Assembly (NCBI GenBank): GCA_035279405.1
Contig: DATEHU010000033.1
Coordinates: 76,231 to 140,230 of the forward strand
Length of the DNA: 64,000 bases
From: Gammaproteobacteria bacterium
GTDB lineage: Bacteria > Pseudomonadota > Gammaproteobacteria > Natronospirales > REEB76
Direction: 5' to 3'
A model generated the notes under the pieces. It saw only the letters and a program-made list of their open reading frames with translations, did not search any database and was not told where the DNA came from. Made by a program: the position numbers and the translations under genes. Positions 1 through 56,357 of the stretch are shown one piece after another (the stretch's first letter is position 1; the number at the start of each line of letters is the position of its first letter).

Positions 1-2218
1 CCCACGCAGGTCCATCTGGAATGGCAAAAAGTGAGGCCTTACTCCCGGTCGCCTGCACCCACCATGGCGTGGTTACGCATCCGACGCGGAGGAGATGGAT
101 AACTCTGAACAAGAGCTTGAATTCGTCATCAAAGAGCTCGGCTTTGTGATTCGCAAGAAACTCTGAGGACTTCGGCGAATGTAATAGAGCTACAAGCGTG
201 TCATCGACAAATTGCGGCGTATACCCGGCGCCACGAATAACAGACTCGAAGACCTGGTTGGACGCCCGGTCGCTCGACTCCAGCAGTTCTCCGATCCATT
301 TCCGGTAGGTTCGACGAATTGCCGGGTAGGTGCCAAGGGCGGTCGCTAGCACCTGAAGGGACTCGTGCGAGCTAAGGTACTGTTCTTCGACCCACTGCAA
401 AATCGCCCAGTCCTCAAGAACATCATGCGCCGGTGCAACTAGGATCTGGGAATGTGAAGGTCCGGCGACCAGGGAATCACTGCGTAAATGCTCCAGAACG
501 GCCGGATCTAGATCACCGCACGGAGCGTAGAGCGCCAGTGCTCTCGCTCTTCGTACCGCTATTTCCATGAAGACCTGCTCGCGCTTCCGTGGCATCCCAT
601 TGCCAGTCTGGTGGTCGACCCTGACAATATCTCGCCAGAACCGGTCCCGAAATCCGCGCTCGTCCTGGGGCAGCGCTGAAGTCGATGCCCAATTAATGCG
701 GAGTGCCTTGTCTAAAACGTATGGATTGCGTAGCAACCTACGCAGGGCGGGGTCGGCCATTGGTCTCTTGAGGGCTGGGTATGCTAACTCCACTTCTGTT
801 AGTTCATCGTCGCCAAGCTGCGGAATCGCCATTACAGTGTGTGCTGATGCGCCGAGCAAACCTGTTCTTACCAAGTCCGTCGAGTACTCGCGGCAAGTCA
901 GAACAAGACGCCAACTCTTATCCTTCGCGATAAGTGTGAGGAGGTCGGAGAAACCGTCACGTGTCGATGCCTCAAGCAGGCGCTCAATGCTTTCGACCAA
1001 GAGTACCTTGCTTGTCTGTGACGCCATGGTCGCACCAAGAGCAGCCGCCGACACGTTTACACCAATTGAGCGAAGCGTTGTATCGAGATGTGTGGATTTA
1101 AATTCTTCTGCTCTGAAGCAGAATATAAAGTGCTCTCTCGATAACGTTGCCATTACATCCTTAGTGACAACAGACTTACCGGAACCTGCAGCACCCGAAA
1201 TCAATACGATCTGATTTGCGGTCAACTCGCCCATTACCCGCTGCACAAGGGCAGCTCGCGGTAAGTGCAAATCAGTACCAATGGTCGACCTAATACCATC
1301 CAAGATAACGTTGGAATGATCTCTAAGAGTCGTTAGTAGAGCGTTCTCGGCAGTGCCGATGCCTCCATGGCGAGAGGTAAGAGCCTCTGGCAGATCACCT
1401 AATTTAAAGCTACGTGCAGTAGCCATCCCTTGACTTGCAATAGTCAGAAGTTGATTCCAAGTCGCGCCTGCTGTCGCGACTGGATCCGCATCTTTCGTGG
1501 TATAGGCAAGAAGCGACCTGATGGAAGCTTCTGACTGACTAGTAGAGGTGTGCAGGTCCAAGACCAGAACGTCGATTGCTTTGAGGAAGGCCCAAATCGA
1601 GGATGCTGATCGTGCTTCTCCGACCAATTGTCCTACCAATTGTTGGATTACCTTACAGTAATCTACAGTTTTGTTATTTACAAACCCTGGAATGGCCAAG
1701 CGACGTTCGAAATCGTCGGCAGAAGATGCGGCTTTTGCGCAATCAAGAAGGCCAGTGAAATGCTCGAGCAGGGCATTTGTGCCTCGCAGCGTAGCCAATA
1801 CAAGACGATCGGTGCCCGGTAAAAACAGACTCTTGTTGTTGAAGTCATCCCACCAGTCGGATACTACCTTTTTGAAATCCTCATCTGATACACCGACAGT
1901 TACCTTGCGTTTTACTTGACCGATAAGCTTGTGGCACTTGTGGCTGGAGTCTCGAACTGTGACTAGGAAATCGTCGGTATTCCAGCCTAGGTGCTCAGTC
2001 TGGAGGTCAACCTGTATGACCGTGCTATCGGTGAATATTGGTGGGGTGGCGCTAACTAGAAGCTGCGCAAGCCAGTAAGCATCAACATGTTGCTCAAAGA
2101 ATGTGCCAGCACCGCCGGTTGCTGCCGGGCTAGAGACGGCAACTTGTTGTGAATCATCGGGTGATCCGGCGACGCGTTCCCGTTGCGGCTCAGCCGGTTC
2201 CTCTGACTCGTTGTTCAT
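1..2218 (-). CDS. STAND/NACHT-like P-loop NTPase with an N-terminal PD-(D/E)xK (Cap4/DUF4297-like) nuclease-like domain. Partial: the 3' end runs off the left edge of the window.
   Basis: My own reverse-complement translation starts at the ATG at 2218 (MNNESEEPAEPQRERVAG...). The frame stays open for 739 codons down to base 2 with no stop, so it is absent from the supplied ORF track. Motifs: Walker A GAAGSGKS (nt 1172-1195), Walker-B-like VLLVESIE, LVLTCRE (TSR-like sensor 1), LRNPYVL (NPL-like motif). The N-terminal GTFFEQHV..E74..DD82/83..GQVK103 resembles a PD-(D/E)xK core. Family assignment is from motif recall, not a search. Confidence 0.7.
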   Translation of the reverse strand, partial: MNNESEEPAEPQRERVAGSPDDSQQVAVSSPAATGGAGTFFEQHVDAYWLAQLLVSATPPIFTDSTVIQVDLQTEHLGWNTDDFLVTVRDSSHKCHKLIGQVKRKVTVGVSDEDFKKVVSDWWDDFNNKSLFLPGTDRLVLATLRGTNALLEHFTGLLDCAKAASSADDFERRLAIPGFVNNKTVDYCKVIQQLVGQLVGEARSASSIWAFLKAIDVLVLDLHTSTSQSEASIRSLLAYTTKDADPVATAGATWNQLLTIASQGMATARSFKLGDLPEALTSRHGGIGTAENALLTTLRDHSNVILDGIRSTIGTDLHLPRAALVQRVMGELTANQIVLISGAAGSGKSVVTKDVMATLSREHFIFCFRAEEFKSTHLDTTLRSIGVNVSAAALGATMASQTSKVLLVESIERLLEASTRDGFSDLLTLIAKDKSWRLVLTCREYSTDLVRTGLLGASAHTVMAIPQLGDDELTEVELAYPALKRPMADPALRRLLRNPYVLDKALRINWASTSALPQDERGFRDRFWRDIVRVDHQTGNGMPRKREQVFMEIAVRRARALALYAPCGDLDPAVLEHLRSDSLVAGPSHSQILVAPAHDVLEDWAILQWVEEQYLSSHESLQVLATALGTYPAIRRTYRKWIGELLESSDRASNQVFESVIRGAGYTPQFVDDTLVALLHSPKSSEFLANHKAELFDDEFKLLFRVIHLLRVGCVTTPWWVQATGSKASLFAIPDGPAW

Positions 2219-2419
2219 GCCATCTATCACTTAATTGGCTTAGCGCCGCATCCACTGATCTCAATTATCCCTGTCTGATTTTAAGCTTGGGAATGTCTGA
2301 TCAATTGAGTGAGTTTAGTGGATTGGCGATGCTTAAGGTGGTGAGGGTTTCTTGATTTTAAGCCGTCAAATAGCAATGACCACACAAACATATCAGAATT
2401 TCCCCAGCATGAAACCTTC
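1..2419. other. AT-richer accessory segment (candidate genomic islet) abutting the 3' end of thyA
   Basis: Hand counts of several 60-nt lines give about 47-55% G+C here, against about 62-70% from thyA/lgt onward. The resident gene uses many A/T-ending codons. No tRNA, integrase or direct repeat is visible at the right-hand edge. The left edge lies outside the window. Confidence 0.6.
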
Positions 2420-3214
2420 CTACACCGCTACCGGCGCCTTGATGGCCGGATGCGATTGATAATTGGCGATCTCGAAATCCTCGAAACGGTAATCAAAAAG
2501 CGTGGGCGGTTTGCGCTTGATGACCAGCGTCGGCAGGGGATACGGCTTGCGCGTCAACTGCTCATCCACCTGCTCCAGATGATTGACATACAAATGGCAA
2601 TCGCCGCCGGTCCAGATGAATTCGCCCGGCTGCAGGCCGGTCTGCTGCGCGAGCATGTGGGTGAGCAGCGCGTAGGAACAGATGTTGAACGGCACGCCGA
2701 GGAAAACATCGGCGCTGCGCTGGTAGAGCTGACAGGAAAGCCGGCCGTTCGCCACGTAGAACTGGAAGAATGCGTGGCAAGGCTGCAAAGCCATCTTGTC
2801 GAGGTCCGCCACGTTCCAGGCGCTCACGATCAGGCGGCGTGAATCCGGATTGCTGCGCAACTGCTCCAGGACCTTTGAAATCTGATCAATATGGCGCCCG
2901 TCCGGCGCCGGCCAGGAACGCCATTGATAGCCGTACACCGGGCCGAGATTGCCTTGCTCGTCGGCCCACTCGTCCCAGATACTCACACCGTGCTCGTGCA
3001 AATAGCCAGTATTGGTATCGCCGCGCAGGAACCACAGCAGTTCGCAGATGATGGAGCGAAAATGCAGTTTCTTGGTGGTCACGGCGGGGAAGCCACCGGC
3101 CAAATCGAAGCGCATCTGGTAACCGAATACCGACAGCGTGCCGGTGCCGGTGCGGTCGCTTTTGCGTGCGCCGCGGTCGCGCACGTGACGCATGAGTTCC
3201 AGATACTGCCGCAT
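2420..3214 (-). CDS. thyA: thymidylate synthase
   Basis: 264-aa ORF starting [38 protein letters not shown]. It contains the ThyA active-site context [13 protein letters not shown] and [13 protein letters not shown]. Confidence 0.97.
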
Positions 3215-4080
3215 CAGGCGCTCTCTGCAGTCGATTTGCGCCGGTAGGCCAACACCAGCAGCACGATGCCGACCGCGATCAACGGCAGCGATAGAATCTG
3301 GCCCATGGTCATCCAGCCGAACGCCAGATAGCCGAACTGCGGGTCCGGCAGGCGTACGAACTCGACCGCAAAGCGGAAACAGCCATACAGCAGCGCAAAC
3401 AGGCCGGACGCGGCCATGCGCGGGCGCGGTTTCATGGTGAACACGAACAGCACTACGAACATCACCACGCCTTCCAGCAGGAATTCATACAGCTGGGTCG
3501 GCTGGCGCGGCAGGCTGAAGCCGTTGACGGCATCGCGGCAATACTCACCGCCGGTGAATCGCGTGTTGGTGCACGGCAGACGCATGGCCCAGGGCAGCGT
3601 CGTGGAAATCTTGCCCCACAATTCGCCGTTGATGAAATTGCCGATACGGCCGGCCGCCAGCCCAATGGGCACCACCACCGCGGAAAAATCCACCACGTCG
3701 AAGTAGTGCTTGTGATACTTGCGCGCAAGCAGCGCGACCGCAACCAGCACGCCGAGCAGGCCGCCGTGGAACGACATGCCTCCGTCCCAGACCTGGAAGA
3801 TGTACAGCGGATTCTGCCATTCCAGCCACTGACCCTCCGGCGTGTAGGCGTAGAACAGCGTGTAGCCGATGCGCCCGCCGATGACCACGCCGAGCGCCAC
3901 GTAAAACAGCAGATCGCCCACCTGCTCCGCGGTCCAGCCGCTGGCGTAGCGGCGCGACACCCGCAGGCGCGCGGCCAGGTAACAACCCAGGAAGCCGATG
4001 AGGTAGGTAATGCCGTACCAGTGCACCTTGAGCGGGCCGAGGCTGAAAGCGACCGGATCGAAATCGGGATAGGTGAGCAT
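3214..4080 (-). CDS. lgt: prolipoprotein diacylglyceryl transferase
   Basis: 288 aa starting [30 protein letters not shown], multi-pass membrane protein. The last base of its TGA stop (3214-3216) is shared with the thyA ATG. The lgt-thyA pairing is classical. Confidence 0.95.
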
Positions 4081-51804: not shown

Positions 51805-52116
51805 TTACCACCGAGAGCGGTTACCACCACCATTACCGCCACCGCCAGAGCGGAAGCCACCGGTACGCGGCTTGTCGGTGGCAACGCTGACCTTGAGCGG
51901 ACGACCGCTGAGGTCCTTGCCATTCTGCTCGAGCGCCTTCTCCGCCGCGGCCTGGGTCGCGAAGGTGATGAATCCGAAGCCCTTGGGGCGGCCGGTATCG
52001 CGATCCATGATCAGGGCCAGTTCTGAAATTTCGCCGTACTGGGAAAAGATTCCGCGCAACTGCGTTTCATCCACCGAGTAAGGAAAATTTCCCACATACA
52101 GTTTGTTCTGTGACAT
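51805..52116 (-). CDS. RRM-type RNA-binding protein with a Gly-rich tail
   Basis: 103 aa. RNP-2 is KLYVGNF and RNP-1 is KGFGFITF. The C-terminus is ...GGFRSGGGGNGGGNRSRW. Confidence 0.9.
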   Translation of the reverse strand: MSQNKLYVGNFPYSVDETQLRGIFSQYGEISELALIMDRDTGRPKGFGFITFATQAAAEKALEQNGKDLSGRPLKVSVATDKPRTGGFRSGGGGNGGGNRSRW

Positions 52117-52155
52117 TGCAATCTCTCTTAAAAGTAATGGATAACTTGAACGTTT

Positions 52156-52431
52156 GTTCTCGAAAACAGTGGCGGGTAATGACTGTCAGAAGCCATCTCA
52201 AAAATGACTGGGTACGCGCAGAGCACGACTGGCATTAGCGGGAAACGGGGGCGTACAGGGCGGTACACAAACGAGGTACGGGGATGTACGGGTGCCGCGC
52301 AAGCCCTGAAAGTCCCCGGTCGGGGAGGAAACAGGATGCCGAAGCGGCGATTCCGAGCTGACGCTACTGGGCTTTGCCAGACGCAGTGGTTTTTGAGATG
52401 GCTTCTGAATACCGCTGACTGTGTTGAGAAC
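52156..52431. repeat. long-range inverted repeat (perfect 18-bp core, about 45-bp imperfect arms) enclosing about 185 nt
   Basis: cagaagccatctcaaaaa at 52187-52204 is the exact reverse complement of tttttgagatggcttctg at 52390-52407. The arms extend imperfectly out to gttctc (52156) and gagaac (52431). Confidence 0.8.
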
Positions 52432-52642
52432 GCGCGCTTTATACCACGTCCTGCGGAATATAGATAGCAAAGACAGAAGCTAGACGGAGCTATGGCCGTT
52501 TTGCTCGATGTTCTCGAGACCACAAAATGTACACAGCCGTGTCTTGCATGCTCCCCGGGCCGGGACTCCCCGAACTGCGTGGAGAACGCCATGAGTTCGC
52601 TAGTGGGTCCGCGTCGCAAAGGAAGTGGCGAAGCCATCCTGA

Positions 52643-53326
52643 TCAGGATTTTAGCGGCTGGGGACGTGTGGCTCCGATAGGCAAATCCACCGCCCGCTTC
52701 ATCTGGGGCGTATCAAAGATGCCGGGGTCACGCAGATAATCCTGCATCATCTCCAGCGAATCCTGGCCCCAGAACAACTGCTCCCCGATAAGGAAAGTCG
52801 GTACGCCGAAAACGCCTTTGGATATGGCGGTATCGGTGTTGGTTTTCAACTTCGCCTTGATTCCGGGATCAGCCAATGTCGCCTGAGCATCCTTGATTCC
52901 AAGCCGCCGCCCCAGCTCGGCAATTTCCCCGGGGTCCTGTAAATCCCGCCCTTCCTGCCAGATCATGTCGAATGCAACCGCCACATTCGCAGGATTTGGC
53001 CCGGCGGCAATGAGCAATCGCTGCGCGGCCAGTGAATTGAAGGGATGCGAGGGCGGCATCTTGAACGGAATCCCCAGATTGCCTGCGAGCCACGTCACAT
53101 ACCGATAGGTGTAGGTTCGTTTGGCCGGGATTTCCGCCGGACCCTTTTGGTCCCAGTGCTTCAGCAGCCCTGCGAGCAGGACGGGAACGTATTCAATTTC
53201 AAGGGACTCAGGGAGCTTGTGCAACAGTTTGAGATGCAGATACGCAAACGGAGAAATCACATCAAAATACCAATTCGCGCGAGTCATCTTGCACTCCAGC
53301 ACAGACATGAAACTGTAGTCTGCCAC
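52643..53326 (-). CDS. 2-hydroxychromene-2-carboxylate isomerase family protein (DsbA-like fold)
   Basis: NWYFDVISPFAYLHLKLL..., then ...GVFGVPTFLIGEQLFWGQDSLEMM. The likely start is the internal ATG at 53287. Confidence 0.75.
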   Translation of the reverse strand: MADYSFMSVLECKMTRANWYFDVISPFAYLHLKLLHKLPESLEIEYVPVLLAGLLKHWDQKGPAEIPAKRTYTYRYVTWLAGNLGIPFKMPPSHPFNSLAAQRLLIAAGPNPANVAVAFDMIWQEGRDLQDPGEIAELGRRLGIKDAQATLADPGIKAKLKTNTDTAISKGVFGVPTFLIGEQLFWGQDSLEMMQDYLRDPGIFDTPQMKRAVDLPIGATRPQPLKS

Positions 53327-54193: not shown

Positions 54194-55099
54194 GTGAGTA
54201 AAACAGGCCGGGAGCATGTCGTGTCCGCCGAGATCACCGCTTTCTTCCACAAGCCCTCCTCCACGTTCAGCTACGTGGTGAGCGACCTCGCCACGCGGCA
54301 CGCCGCGGTAATTGATCCGGTGCTGGACTATGACGCCGCCGCCGGCCGCACGGCTGTGGAATCGGCGCAGACGCTCGTGGATTTCCTGCGCCGCAGCGGC
54401 TGCACGCTCGACTGGATTCTGGAAACCCACGCGCATGCGGACCATCTGAGCGCCGCGCAATTCGTCAAGGGCGAACTCGGTGGACGCATCTGCATCGGCG
54501 AAGGCATTCGCCAAGTGCAGCAAACTTTCAAAGCGTTCTACAACTTGGGGGGTGAATGCAAACCCGATGGCCGTCAATTCGATCATCTGTTCAAGGACGG
54601 CGAGATATTTCAAATCGGCACACTGGAAGCGCGCGTCATGGCCACGCCGGGGCACACCGGTGACAGCGTGACCTACGTGATTGACGGCGCCGTTTTCGTG
54701 GGCGACACGCTGTTCATGCCGGACTCCGGCACGGCGCGTTGTGACTTCCCGGGATGCGATGCCGGCACGCTCTACGATTCCATCCGCAAAATCCTGTCAC
54801 TGCCGCCCGAGACACGCCTGTTCATGTGTCACGACTACGCACCCGGCGGACGCGAATACAAGCATGAAACAACGGTAGCCGAACAGAAGCGCGCCAACAT
54901 CCACGTCCATGACGGCGTGTCGCGCGCAGCCTTCATCAAACTGCGAACTGAACGCGACAAAACCCTGAGCGTTCCGGCGTTGTTGCTGCCTGCCATCCAG
55001 GTCAACATCCGCGCGGGCCGCTTGCCCGAGCCCGAAGGCAATGGTGTTAGCTATCTCAGGATTCCTCTCAATATCAACTTATCCAATCAGAAATCATGA
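54194..55099 (+). CDS. MBL-fold metallo-hydrolase (persulfide-dioxygenase-like, tentative)
   Basis: It has the ETHAHADH metal motif, ...ATPGHTGDSVTYV... and ...GDTLFMPDSGTARCDFPG.... The track ORF starts at a GTG (54194); an alternative in-frame GTG lies at 54221. Confidence 0.8.
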   Translation: MSKTGREHVVSAEITAFFHKPSSTFSYVVSDLATRHAAVIDPVLDYDAAAGRTAVESAQTLVDFLRRSGCTLDWILETHAHADHLSAAQFVKGELGGRICIGEGIRQVQQTFKAFYNLGGECKPDGRQFDHLFKDGEIFQIGTLEARVMATPGHTGDSVTYVIDGAVFVGDTLFMPDSGTARCDFPGCDAGTLYDSIRKILSLPPETRLFMCHDYAPGGREYKHETTVAEQKRANIHVHDGVSRAAFIKLRTERDKTLSVPALLLPAIQVNIRAGRLPEPEGNGVSYLRIPLNINLSNQKS

Positions 55100-55242
55100 C
55101 CACTCGAAAACTCAAAAAGGTTCCTCTCGGAAAATCTCGCGCTGTTACGGATTCCCGTGTGAAGTCGCTGCTAGGCAAGTATAGAGGCAAGAGGTTGCTC
55201 AGGGCTCTGGCGATGGAGAAGAAACGGGAACGGGAGATTTGA
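55096..55242 (+). CDS. small basic ORF (48 aa) of unknown function
   Basis: Translated by hand: MTTRKLKKVPLGKSRAVTDSRVKSLLGKYRGKRLLRALAMEKKREREI. Its ATG overlaps the preceding stop (ATGA). It is below the 60-aa cut-off of the track. There is no other support for it. Confidence 0.3.
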   Translation: MTTRKLKKVPLGKSRAVTDSRVKSLLGKYRGKRLLRALAMEKKREREI

Positions 55243-56300
55243 CGACAGCCGATAATCGCTATGCGGATTCAGCGTTTCGATCGCAAAAATACGGAGTCCC
55301 GATGAAAATCGAGATATTTTCGCTGACCGCTGGTGAATTGTCCTACCTTCGTAAGGTTCTCTGTGGGCACCCCCATCTTTTGCAGTGAAGGTTTATGCGC
55401 TACCGGAGAAACCAGCAGTGTGCCGTCGTTATCGAAAGAGATGAAGCCGCGGTCAAAGAGATGGTCAATAGACGGCGTAAGAAGGAGGCCGTTTTCTCCA
55501 TCCAGTCGCTCCTCATTGGAGCTGTCACGCCAAGGTTTGCAATGGCTGGCTATCAAGTGCTCGGGCCGCTCAACTTTTGTTACGCGGCAGGAGTGTTCAA
55601 TTAAAGCAACGCGTTGTTTGAACATACCCTGACCGCGGCGTGCAAGTATCAGCGCAGATTTCTCTGTTTCCGGAATTTTCTTGTCTGATTCAATTACGGC
55701 CTTTATATGGTCTTCCCAGTTTTGCACATCATCGAAATTTTTCGGGGCGTACTGAGTGTCAGCTTTTGTTGCCCGCTCCCAGAATTGTCGGGCTTCAAAG
55801 CCGATGAGAGCGAGTAACTCCTGAGCCAGAAGCGGCTCAATCCAGGTGAGGTAAATAGCTTGATTTCCGCGCCCGGATGATTGCAAGGGAGAATAGCGCT
55901 CGGGCAGATAGGGGCGCAAGCGCTCGATATTGTCTATTGGCTTTATTTGGTGTTCGAGCACTCTGAAATCCACGTTCACACACCAACCGATCCGGTTCCA
56001 ATTTGGGCCAGCGTTGCCGAATTCCGGAGGTTTGGGGGCTTCTCGTGCATAACTGGTGGCAAGCCCTAGTGCTTTGATCAATGTATCTTCAAACGAGAAT
56101 ATGAGGTCGCTTGGCGCCACTTCCCGCATTGATTCGTAAAATGGATTGATTGAACCATCGGATTTACGTTTAGGTGACCAGAGATAACCGCCTCGAACTT
56201 CTTGTTCGAAAGTCTGATTCTGATTCACCCACCAGAATTTCATTGTGAAGGGCACATGCGATGGCATCGTCTTTTATGGCCACCGCAATTGTAGGTCATC
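55100..56300. other. second AT-richer islet (small ORF plus HNH endonuclease) between core genes
   Basis: Hand-counted lines give about 38-55% G+C against the GC-rich flanks. No integrase or convincing flanking direct repeat was seen. Confidence 0.55.
55269..56267 (-). CDS. HNH endonuclease (HNH_2-type nuclease domain) with an unassigned N-terminal domain of about 170 aa; candidate restriction-type nuclease
   Basis: The C-terminal part (aa 208-285, nt 55413-55646) reads RRGQGMFKQRVALIEHSCRVT...LIASHCKPWRDSSNEERLDGENGLLLTPSIDHLFDRGFISF. The N-terminus is MKFWWVNQNQTFEQEVRGGYLWSPKRKSDGSINPFYESMREVAPSDLIFSF. A possible true start is the ATG at 56243. Confidence 0.8.
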   Translation of the reverse strand: MPSHVPFTMKFWWVNQNQTFEQEVRGGYLWSPKRKSDGSINPFYESMREVAPSDLIFSFEDTLIKALGLATSYAREAPKPPEFGNAGPNWNRIGWCVNVDFRVLEHQIKPIDNIERLRPYLPERYSPLQSSGRGNQAIYLTWIEPLLAQELLALIGFEARQFWERATKADTQYAPKNFDDVQNWEDHIKAVIESDKKIPETEKSALILARRGQGMFKQRVALIEHSCRVTKVERPEHLIASHCKPWRDSSNEERLDGENGLLLTPSIDHLFDRGFISFDNDGTLLVSPVAHKPSLQKMGVPTENLTKVGQFTSGQRKYLDFHRDSVFLRSKR

Positions 56301-56317
56301 CCGGTAACCGATGACGC

Positions 56318-56348
56318 ATAAAAAAGCGCCGCCTGTTCATGCAGCGCT
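56318..56348 (-). terminator. rho-independent terminator downstream of hppA
   Basis: The minus-strand RNA reads AGCGCUGC-AUGAACAG-GCGGCGCU (7 of 8 positions paired), followed by UUUUUUAU. Confidence 0.7.
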
Positions 56349-56357
56349 TGGATTCCC

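Follow-up and report, generated by a model that had tools for sequence, protein, structure and literature searches.

The minus-strand gene at positions 55269-56243 of the window (the whole 64-kb stretch of DNA that was analysed) very probably codes for a modification-dependent (type IV) restriction endonuclease that stands alone, belongs to the EVE-HNH class and its TspA15I/VcaM4I/CmeDI group, and acts in phage defence. It is the one minus-strand nuclease gene of a low-G+C islet lying between the gene for an MBL-fold hydrolase and the terminator of hppA. An earlier sequence-only reading had argued that a base reader and an HNH nuclease joined in a single polypeptide follow the logic of type IV enzymes; a full-length match to VcaM4I, the conservation of its functional residues and a predicted fold of the EVE/YTH/THYN1 kind all bear this out. 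The novelty implied by the word "candidate" in that reading was nonetheless overstated, since the same EVE-HNH architecture was described in 2019-2021. The enzyme type is thus already known, and the window protein is, by homology, a new instance of a characterised family.

Gene, domain architecture and similarity to VcaM4I

Counted from its first ATG, the open reading frame spans 55269-56267 (minus strand) and encodes 332 aa, with the same sequence as previously quoted; the protein itself is however likely to be 324 aa long. The residue equivalent to M9 (MKFWW...) is the start in 56 of 59 aligned homologues and in VcaM4I, all of which lack the preceding MPSHVPFT, and the true start is therefore almost certainly the ATG at 56243, giving 324 aa plus the stop codon. 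As no clear Shine-Dalgarno sequence was found upstream of either candidate ATG, that the 8-codon 5' extension (56244-56267, minus strand) is probably untranslated is something we infer.

The protein can be divided into a predicted EVE (PUA-like) domain that would read modified cytosine (aa 1-148; 55800-56243), a helical inter-domain linker with approximate borders (around aa 149-188; 55680-55799) and an HNH_2 (beta-beta-alpha-Me) nuclease domain (around aa 189-324; 55272-55679), all on the minus strand. The nuclease domain, already recognised as HNH_2 from the letters of the sequence, is matched by Pfam HNH_2 (PF13391) at aa 227-279 of the 332-aa ORF with E = 3.8e-10, above the gathering score. 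A PADLOC HNH model also matches the C-terminal nuclease part (E = 1e-21), and the NCBIfam PT-DNA restriction model gives a sub-threshold match confined to the HNH part. The N-terminus had been described as an unassigned region of about 170 aa. It is indeed covered by no Pfam, NCBIfam, PADLOC or PHROGs model over aa 1-150, and the Pfam EVE model (PF01878) did not reach its gathering threshold, HNH_2 being the sole Pfam match at E <= 1; its length, on the other hand, is closer to 150 aa, followed by a helical linker of about 40 aa.

After these profile libraries had given no match, the N-terminal domain was identified by sequence search of the PDB. With phmmer, the query (residues 9-328) matched residues 1-307 of the 309 of VcaM4I (6yex_A) with E = 2e-85 and 290 bits. 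Identity is 45% across the 307 aligned residues, and amounts to 47% in the EVE domain (VcaM4I residues 1-150), 49% in the HNH domain and 28% in the linker. A Foldseek search with the AlphaFold model likewise ranked 6yex first (E = 1e-30), followed by the EVE protein 2p5d, YTH domains and THYN1 (5j3e, bound to 5mC DNA). The PUA/EVE-like reader proposed earlier is thus recovered by both sequence and fold, the EVE assignment being based on the fold search and on homology to VcaM4I, which owes its own EVE classification to a crystal structure (PMC7897488). The model has pLDDT values of 75-94 across the EVE domain and below 50 at 215-258, in the HNH core, so that the geometry of the active site is not readable from it. 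Predicted helices span 137-147, 149-163 and 171-186, and the predicted order is a beta-rich N-terminal domain, helices and then the HNH region. The fold of the N-terminal domain is also common to THYN1/Thy28 and bacterial stand-alone EVE proteins (5j3e, 2eve, 2gbs, 2p5d), but these carry no nuclease domain and are 11-14% identical to the window protein, which receives no score from the Pfam EVE model.

For VcaM4I from Vibrio campbellii (PDB 6yex, 6yjb, 6ykf, 6ymg), both biochemistry and structure have been worked out: it is an EVE-HNH modification-dependent endonuclease that flips 5mC or 5hmC into a hydrophobic pocket (PMC7897488, PMC6765204). Its 309 residues and the 324 of the window enzyme are collinear over their full length, with the same order of EVE domain, linker helices and HNH_2 domain, an arrangement that characterises the group as single chains of about 310-330 aa. 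All of the VcaM4I residues Q10, T11, E15, W22, S23, P24, W82, Q128, Y130, H224, N241, D250 and D254, whose roles in the pocket, wedge and active site have been described (PMC7897488), are present in the window enzyme: Q10, T11, E15, W22, S23, P24, W82 and Y131 in the pocket, Q128 as the wedge, and H234, N251, D260 and D264 in the active site (H224, N241, D250 and D254 in VcaM4I). Across 60 homologues (alignment A1), 11 of these 13 positions are invariant, including the whole H, N, D, D catalytic set, and the other two are conserved in 59. The two enzymes nevertheless differ at 55% of their residues, with Ser in place of H248 of VcaM4I and Thr in place of F132, and in their hosts, a Vibrio for VcaM4I and a gammaproteobacterium-like organism of 63% GC for the window enzyme.

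Proposed mechanism and substrate preference

By analogy with VcaM4I, the window enzyme would act, probably as a dimer, which in the group forms through the HNH domains, by scanning DNA with its N-terminal EVE domain and inserting Gln128 as a wedge. The domain would then flip a cytosine substituted at C5 (5mC or 5hmC and perhaps, less well, glucosyl-5hmC) into the hydrophobic pocket, to be stacked between Tyr131 and Trp82/Pro24 and read along its Watson-Crick edge by Thr11, Glu15 and the backbone of Gln10 and Trp22. Binding to modified DNA would displace the helical linker that would otherwise block the DNA groove of the HNH domain, as proposed for the auto-inhibitory linker of VcaM4I (PMC7897488). 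The HNH site, with His234 as the likely general base, Asp260 and Asp264 as putative metal ligands and Asn251 in a structural role, would cut both strands nearby with Mg2+ or Mn2+. The linker to which auto-inhibition is attributed is only 28% identical to that of VcaM4I and about 10 residues longer. The enzyme is presumed to defend the host against phages, and perhaps against plasmids, with hypermodified or methylated cytosines.

Other members of the group help to delimit this prediction. TspA15I from Thioalkalivibrio sp. ALJ15 (WP_020146688) and CmeDI (A0A3R2GY07) are the founding members of the EVE-HNH group (Lutz et al. 2019, PMC6765204) and are reported to be about 46-50% identical to VcaM4I. 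Compared by description, they also combine a PUA/EVE-like N-terminus with a C-terminal HNH domain and are solitary, without a methyltransferase; the source of TspA15I is moreover a gammaproteobacterium, as is that of the window enzyme. TspA15I, VcaM4I and CmeDI prefer 5hmC-containing DNA for cleavage; their restriction of the 5hmC phage T4gt is strong, that of T4 ranges from weak to strong, and lambda-vir is left unrestricted (PMC6765204). They differ from each other on g5hmC and 5mC (PMC6765204), and for this reason what the window enzyme itself prefers is not readable from them in detail; at 45% identity to VcaM4I, its preference may have shifted.

A first alternative would keep the architecture and change the specificity, with the EVE/YTH-like pocket reading, instead of 5mC/5hmC, another modified base such as 5-hydroxymethyl-uracil, N6-methyladenine or glucosylated hmC. 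Besides the limited identity to VcaM4I, it draws on the many m6A-binding YTH domains among the closest folds after 6yex, and on the promiscuity of TspA15I, VcaM4I and CmeDI on 5hmdU-containing SP8 DNA together with their differences on g5hmC (PMC6765204). The likeness to YTH domains is however at the level of the fold only (8-17% identity), and the window enzyme shares with VcaM4I both the residues that hydrogen-bond the Watson-Crick edge of cytosine there (T11 by its hydroxyl, E15 by its carboxylate) and the residues that stack on the base, all of them invariant, or conserved in 59 of 60 sequences, in the family. Such a change of specificity is thus unlikely, and a reader of 5-substituted cytosines is preferred.

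The same logic, a base-flipping reader of the PUA superfamily and a nuclease in one NTP-independent polypeptide, is found in TagI, which has an HNH domain as well, in the SRA-HNH enzymes of the ScoMcrA/ScoA3IV type and in the SRA-nuclease enzymes of the MspJI/AbaSI type. Their readers are SRA domains instead of EVE, with other pocket chemistry and intercalating residues (PMC7897488), and none of these enzymes was matched in the PDB sequence search at E <= 10.

An accessory islet between MBL and hppA

The islet (55066-56323, about 1.26 kb) has a G+C content of 50%, against a window mean of 62.7%. The lower-G+C DNA of 1.2 kb noted in the sequence-only reading is therefore real (0.500 versus 0.627 for 55096-56300), although its single 60-bp lines range from 0.42 to 0.57 and not from 38 to 55%. 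This segment lies 3.8 standard scores below the mean (z = -3.8) and is the 12th lowest of 1256 when all 1205-bp segments are considered; a single other stretch of comparably low G+C is found in the window, at about 1-3 kb. GC3 is 0.52 for the nuclease gene, 0.73 for MBL and 0.89 for hppA. The same contrast in G+C is seen at two related loci, L001 and L082.

The position of the islet between MBL and the hppA terminator was correctly placed from the start, with the MBL stop codon at 55099 and the terminator at 56324-56349. This intrinsic terminator (minus strand, identified by a terminator scan), made of a hairpin and a T-tract, forms the right border, and its hairpin GCGCCGCC..GGCGGCGC is kept in the occupied loci L001, L082 and L091 as well as at the empty site of L002. 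Two copies of the hairpin are present in L001, where they bracket a small ORF and the nuclease gene. On the left, nucleotide homology with the MBL genes of relatives stops at 55065 (55037 for L002), to restart at the terminator and hppA. The last 11 or so codons of the MBL gene (55066-55099, plus strand; ..NINLSNQKS*) are divergent, the protein ending in ..IPVNRF* in L001 and ..IPLDKF* in L002, and were apparently supplied by islet-side sequence. In a short and noisy alignment, window positions 55020-55095 align just upstream of the small ORF of L082, apart from the intact MBL gene of this locus.

The MBL/hppA junction is occupied in L001, L082/83, L090 and L091-93, with a protein identity of 78-96% (L001, L082, L091-93), whereas only about 100 bp separate MBL from hppA in the syntenic genome L002, where the DNA of the islet is missing. 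With three syntenic relatives carrying the islet at this junction and one lacking it, the islet is accessory, yet not recent. The possibility raised earlier that the locus is core sequence in all relatives is thus approached by three of them and countered by L002. Consistent with an older presence, the nuclease has diverged between relatives to the same extent as the MBL protein encoded next to it (78-80% versus 77-79% identity). Of the usual signs of horizontal acquisition, deviant composition and a presence/absence polymorphism are observed; no flanking direct repeats were found around the islet, no integrase or transposase ORF in it and no mobility genes in the window. A recent insertion of a mobile element, with neither repeats nor mobility genes and a divergence equal to that of MBL, is accordingly unsupported. 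An Rfam scan of the whole window returned zero matches.

Retention at one locus across relatives about 20% apart in protein sequence, which is longer than many defence genes persist, could also mean that the gene is a remnant, decaying or domesticated, that has lost its activity or now serves the host in some other function. The repeated occupation of the same junction, the lack of mobility genes and flanking repeats, and the lack of a promoter-like site in a simple scan would fit such a remnant. In contrast, the ORF is intact with all catalytic and pocket residues kept, and differences concentrate strongly at third codon positions (62/34/178 by codon position versus L001 and 42/36/174 versus L082), indicating purifying selection. 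The empty site in L002 also argues against a remnant, GC3 is far below the host level, which means that the gene has not been ameliorated, and close homologues are scattered over unrelated genomes and plasmids. A remnant is hence very unlikely, and an active defence enzyme remains the favoured reading. The pair of occupied and empty junctions offers a clean small case of a defence gene placed between a stop codon and the terminator of a neighbour.

Family distribution and absence of an adjacent methyltransferase

The family is very large, with at least 7,993 matches, and full-length homologues occur in 87 plasmid records. Among 50,697 phage records, no full-length homologue and only two matches to the HNH part were found, and a phage origin of the gene is rejected on this ground. 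In five unrelated loci (L081, L084, L085/86, L087/88 and L089), the gene lies near a DpnI-like gene, an integrase, a resolvase or a transposase fragment.

No methyltransferase gene stands beside the nuclease gene in the window, as had been noticed before, its neighbours encoding a TauE-like protein, the MBL hydrolase, an H+-PPase, PFK and adenylate kinase (ADK), nor in the five unrelated loci. As no methyltransferase was found, either among these neighbours or by a crude scan of the 64-kb window for C5-methyltransferase motif IV, a classical R-M system is rejected. A type IV enzyme would need none, the target modification being presumably missing from the DNA of the host. The host should thus itself be without such cytosine modification. 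Most improbable of all is that the gene encodes an orphan HNH restriction enzyme of a type II-like kind, or a homing-type HNH nuclease, with unmodified DNA as its target. In favour of this, the C-terminal part is matched by PADLOC models bearing a Type II REase label (E = 2e-13 and 9e-12), and TspA15I weakly cleaves and nicks unmodified DNA at GACNGTC-like sites (PMC6765204). These matches, however, span the HNH part alone, an unprotected type II enzyme without a methyltransferase nearby would be lethal, the gene is not inside an intron, intein or phage gene, and the characterised relatives cause no toxicity in E. coli and require modification (PMC6765204).

For the organism, resistance to phages whose DNA is of the 5hmC or 5mC type would be the expected consequence of such an enzyme. 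Public databases label this EVE-HNH family simply as "HNH endonuclease", and no profile library spans the reader domain, so that the label of EVE-HNH type IV enzyme improves the annotation of defence genes; beyond annotation, its significance is small.

A lineage-restricted small ORF next to the nuclease gene

A basic ORF of 48 aa (MTTRKLKK...LLGKYRGKRLLRALAMEKKREREI; 55096-55242, plus strand) is translationally coupled to the MBL gene, its ATG overlapping the MBL stop codon (ATGA), and runs tail-to-tail toward the nuclease gene. L001 and L082/L083 have homologues at the equivalent place, and tblastn also detects one in L090. Every syntenic relative that carries the nuclease retains the ORF without interruption, and its motif L-x-GKY(R/K)-x-K-x-LL(K/R)AL-x-x-E(K/R)KRE is conserved. 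Changes in the ORF show a modest excess at third codon positions. It has no Pfam match, and a search of 5.8 billion proteins returned only two matches, both of 48 aa and one of them identical. Found by tblastn in syntenic loci only, and absent from the neighbourhoods of the same five unrelated EVE-HNH loci, it is lineage-restricted, and a role as a general partner of EVE-HNH enzymes is rejected. Within this lineage, it is conceivable but quite unlikely that the ORF encodes a partner of the nuclease, for example a small regulator or inhibitor tuning a potentially self-toxic enzyme; were this so, the islet would encode a two-component variant of an enzyme described as solitary.

Domain architecture and functional residues of the nuclease

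The nuclease ORF (55269..56267, minus strand; 332 aa counted from the first ATG) is flanked on the left by the stop codon of an MBL-fold hydrolase gene (MBL; 54194..55099, plus strand) and on the right by the intrinsic terminator hairpin of hppA, the H+-pyrophosphatase gene (56324-56349, minus strand). Translation likely starts at the second ATG, at 56243 (MKFWW..., 324 aa), as the equivalent start is used by 56 of 59 aligned homologues and by the crystallised relative VcaM4I; the functional residues below are numbered on this form. On the metagenome contig L090, which matches the window over 2,549 bp at 100% identity and is therefore the same strain sampled independently, the gene caller chose an internal start (1338-2198, 286 aa). 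Such a call would truncate the EVE domain and represents an annotation pitfall for the EVE-HNH family.

Profile searches reach the C-terminal part of the protein: HNH_2 is its sole Pfam match (E = 3.8e-10), NCBIfam restriction-endonuclease models match the same part below threshold, and the coverage of the PADLOC HNH models is limited to the C-terminal half. The first ~150 residues match no profile in Pfam, NCBIfam or PADLOC, and the sequence-only reading was thus right to call the N-terminal domain unassigned. In a PDB sequence search, the protein aligns end to end with 6yex_A (E = 2e-85; residues 9-328 of the 332-aa ORF versus 1-307 of 309). This chain is VcaM4I, prototype of the EVE-HNH modification-dependent restriction endonucleases (Pastor et al. 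2021, PMC7897488). The two proteins share 45% identity over their length, with 47% within the EVE domain and 49% within the HNH domain; the linker, at 28%, is the least conserved part. An AlphaFold2 model made from 60 homologues (mean pLDDT 74.7) is good for the EVE domain and poor for residues 215-258 of the HNH core. With this model, Foldseek ranks 6yex first in the PDB (E = 1e-30), followed by the EVE-like protein 2p5d, many YTH domains, and THYN1 bound to 5mC DNA; because of this ranking, the N-terminal domain is assigned, at the level of the predicted fold, as an EVE-type reader of the PUA superfamily. Together with the VcaM4I alignment, this bears out an earlier guess of a PUA/EVE-like N-terminus. 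The Pfam EVE profile does not match this region; this reflects how far the profile reaches, and matching it is not what defines the enzyme group.

In VcaM4I, the flipped 5mC or 5hmC is sandwiched by Y130 and W82/P24, its Watson-Crick edge is read by T11, E15, and the backbone of Q10 and W22, and the gap left in the duplex is occupied by Q128; catalysis requires H224, D250, and D254, while N241 is structural (PMC7897488). The window protein has the VcaM4I residue at all 13 functional positions (Q10, T11, E15, W22, S23, P24, W82, Q128, Y131, H234, N251, D260, and D264). Across a 60-sequence alignment (homologues of 58-96% identity), 11 of them are invariant and the other two are conserved in 59 of 60 sequences. 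The gene itself is under purifying selection, since changes relative to two syntenic orthologues concentrate at third codon positions (first/second/third: 62/34/178 versus L001, a gammaproteobacterial MAG labelled Natronospirales, and 42/36/174 versus the metagenomic locus L082).

Mode of action expected from characterised relatives

TspA15I, VcaM4I, and CmeDI preferentially cut 5hmC-containing DNA with Mg2+ or Mn2+. Their restriction is strong against T4gt, weak to strong against wild-type T4 and nil against lambda-vir, and they are non-toxic in E. coli devoid of a methyltransferase (PMC6765204). VcaM4I is a dimer in which the DNA groove of the HNH domain is occluded by the linker helix and the EVE domains; once the linker and the EVE domain are both removed, what is left is a toxic, non-specific nuclease, and cleavage products carry single-nucleotide 3' overhangs (PMC7897488). 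By analogy, the window enzyme would recognise a 5-substituted cytosine by base flipping, auto-inhibition would then be relieved, and a double-strand cut would be made nearby; we infer its substrate ranking, dimerisation, and auto-inhibition from these relatives. The linker aside, it shares with the TspA15I/VcaM4I/CmeDI group every feature compared at the sequence and structure levels. Homology to VcaM4I, predicted fold, and conserved residues support the earlier proposal of a type IV enzyme, with a modified-base reader and an HNH nuclease in one polypeptide, and identify it as an uncharacterised member of this group. Knowledge of the enzyme type dates from 2019 and its structural explanation from 2021; the member is new.

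An accessory islet at the MBL/hppA junction

The low-GC islet had been correctly described from the sequence, with small numerical corrections: G+C of 55096-56300 is 0.500 versus 0.627 for the whole window (z = -3.8; rank 12 of 1256 from the lowest among 1205-bp windows), and ranges from 0.42 to 0.57 by 60-bp line. GC3 is 0.52 for the nuclease gene, 0.73 for MBL, and 0.89 for hppA.

A search with the MBL protein against 185,579 species genomes returned two syntenic relatives. In L001, gene order is TauE, MBL, two paralogous ~135-aa ORFs, a 54-aa ORF, EVE-HNH (78% identical), hppA (95% identical), PFK, and adk. In L002, the site is empty, with an MBL-hppA gap of ~100 bp that contains the same terminator hairpin. 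The junction is also occupied in metagenomic loci L082/83 (EVE-HNH 80% identical; a single 138-aa ORF separates MBL from the small ORF) and L091-93 (96% protein identity), and on the 100%-identical contig L090. The islet is thus accessory and does not belong to a core shared by all relatives. At the nucleotide level, the window matches the MBL genes of its relatives up to 55065 and matches the relatives again from the terminator onward; the insert is therefore placed at ~55066-56323, to the left of the hppA terminator, towards MBL. Neither flanking repeats nor mobility genes were found for the islet in the window. Divergence of the nuclease between relatives is close to that of MBL, and its G+C is low in all of them (0.48-0.51 versus 0.60-0.65); from these sequences, acquisition probably predates the split of the window and relative lineages.

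The ~131-138-aa ORFs between MBL and the small ORF (L001 1154-1549 and 1542-1958, plus strand; L082 6254-6670, minus strand) are absent from the window, and islet content therefore varies between relatives. These paralogues are 46% identical to each other, with a faint SpoIIAA-like/STAS match (E = 0.065). L001 also carries two direct copies of the hppA-type hairpin (1958-1983 and 3307-3332; 81% identical over 26 nt) flanking the small ORF and EVE-HNH module, the window having the hppA-side copy only; the pair may be a footprint of the module's insertion or rearrangement. Finally, the C-terminal tail of the window MBL is divergent (..NINLSNQKS* versus ..NRF* or ..DKF* in relatives), and a short, noisy alignment (window 55020-55099, L082 6149-6223) indicates that L082 apparently has a second, degenerate MBL-3'-end-like stretch (..LPEPEPVT*), directly upstream of its small ORF. 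Two histories are suggested: a duplicated MBL 3' end in L082, or loss of sequence between two copies in the window lineage.

A small ORF facing the nuclease gene

A very basic ORF of 48 aa (55096..55242, plus strand) starts in an ATGA overlap with the MBL stop codon and runs towards the convergent nuclease gene. Its homologues lie at the equivalent place in L001 and L082 and have the motif L-x-GKY(R/K)-x-K-x-LL(K/R)AL-x-x-E(K/R)KRE in common; changes fall in modest excess on third codon positions. Pfam gives no match, and the two database matches are both gene-caller predictions from metagenome assemblies. The ORF is probably either a genuine small gene restricted to this lineage or a conserved leader. 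It is found in syntenic relatives only and is absent from five unrelated EVE-HNH loci, so that a role as general partner of the enzyme is unsupported; that it modulates the nuclease seems very improbable.

Family distribution

At least 7,993 homologues were found at E <= 0.001 among 8,000 scored candidates; among the matches listed, nearly all are full length (320-330 aa), and names, if any, are 'HNH endonuclease' or 'putative restriction endonuclease'. Among plasmid records, 87 carry a full-length homologue (Sphingomonas, Agrobacterium, Photobacterium, Acinetobacter, Bacillus, and others); among the phage records searched, none does. In all five unrelated neighbourhoods, the EVE-HNH gene is solitary, with variable adjoining genes and no methyltransferase beside it. 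Neighbours include a tyrosine integrase with an excisionase-like HTH (L089), a serine recombinase (L085), a transposase fragment (L081), an HNH/HIT protein and a RecD-like helicase (L087), and a DpnI-like gene (L084). Such a distribution is typical of a mobile, stand-alone defence gene.

On L084, an unrelated soil metagenome contig, the DpnI-like gene (771-1541, plus strand; Pfam DpnI and DpnI_C) lies directly upstream of the EVE-HNH homologue (1542-2519, plus strand; 69% identical), with zero gap. DpnI is 6mA-dependent, and the two genes would form a tandem of modification-dependent nucleases, one for adenine and one for cytosine modifications.

Other low-GC stretches of the window

A second low-GC stretch (1-2420; 0.49-0.56) lies upstream of thyA (2420-3214, minus strand) and lgt (3214-4080, minus strand); neither a convincing long ORF nor an Rfam match is present, and the stretch may consist of foreign DNA, degraded or non-coding. 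Another ~500 bp (52120-52640), between genes for an RRM-type RNA-binding protein (51805-52116, minus strand) and a DsbA-like protein (52643-53326, minus strand), holds implausible ORFs only and no Rfam match at the gathering threshold; its G+C is somewhat lower (0.50-0.56) and its GC skew is positive.
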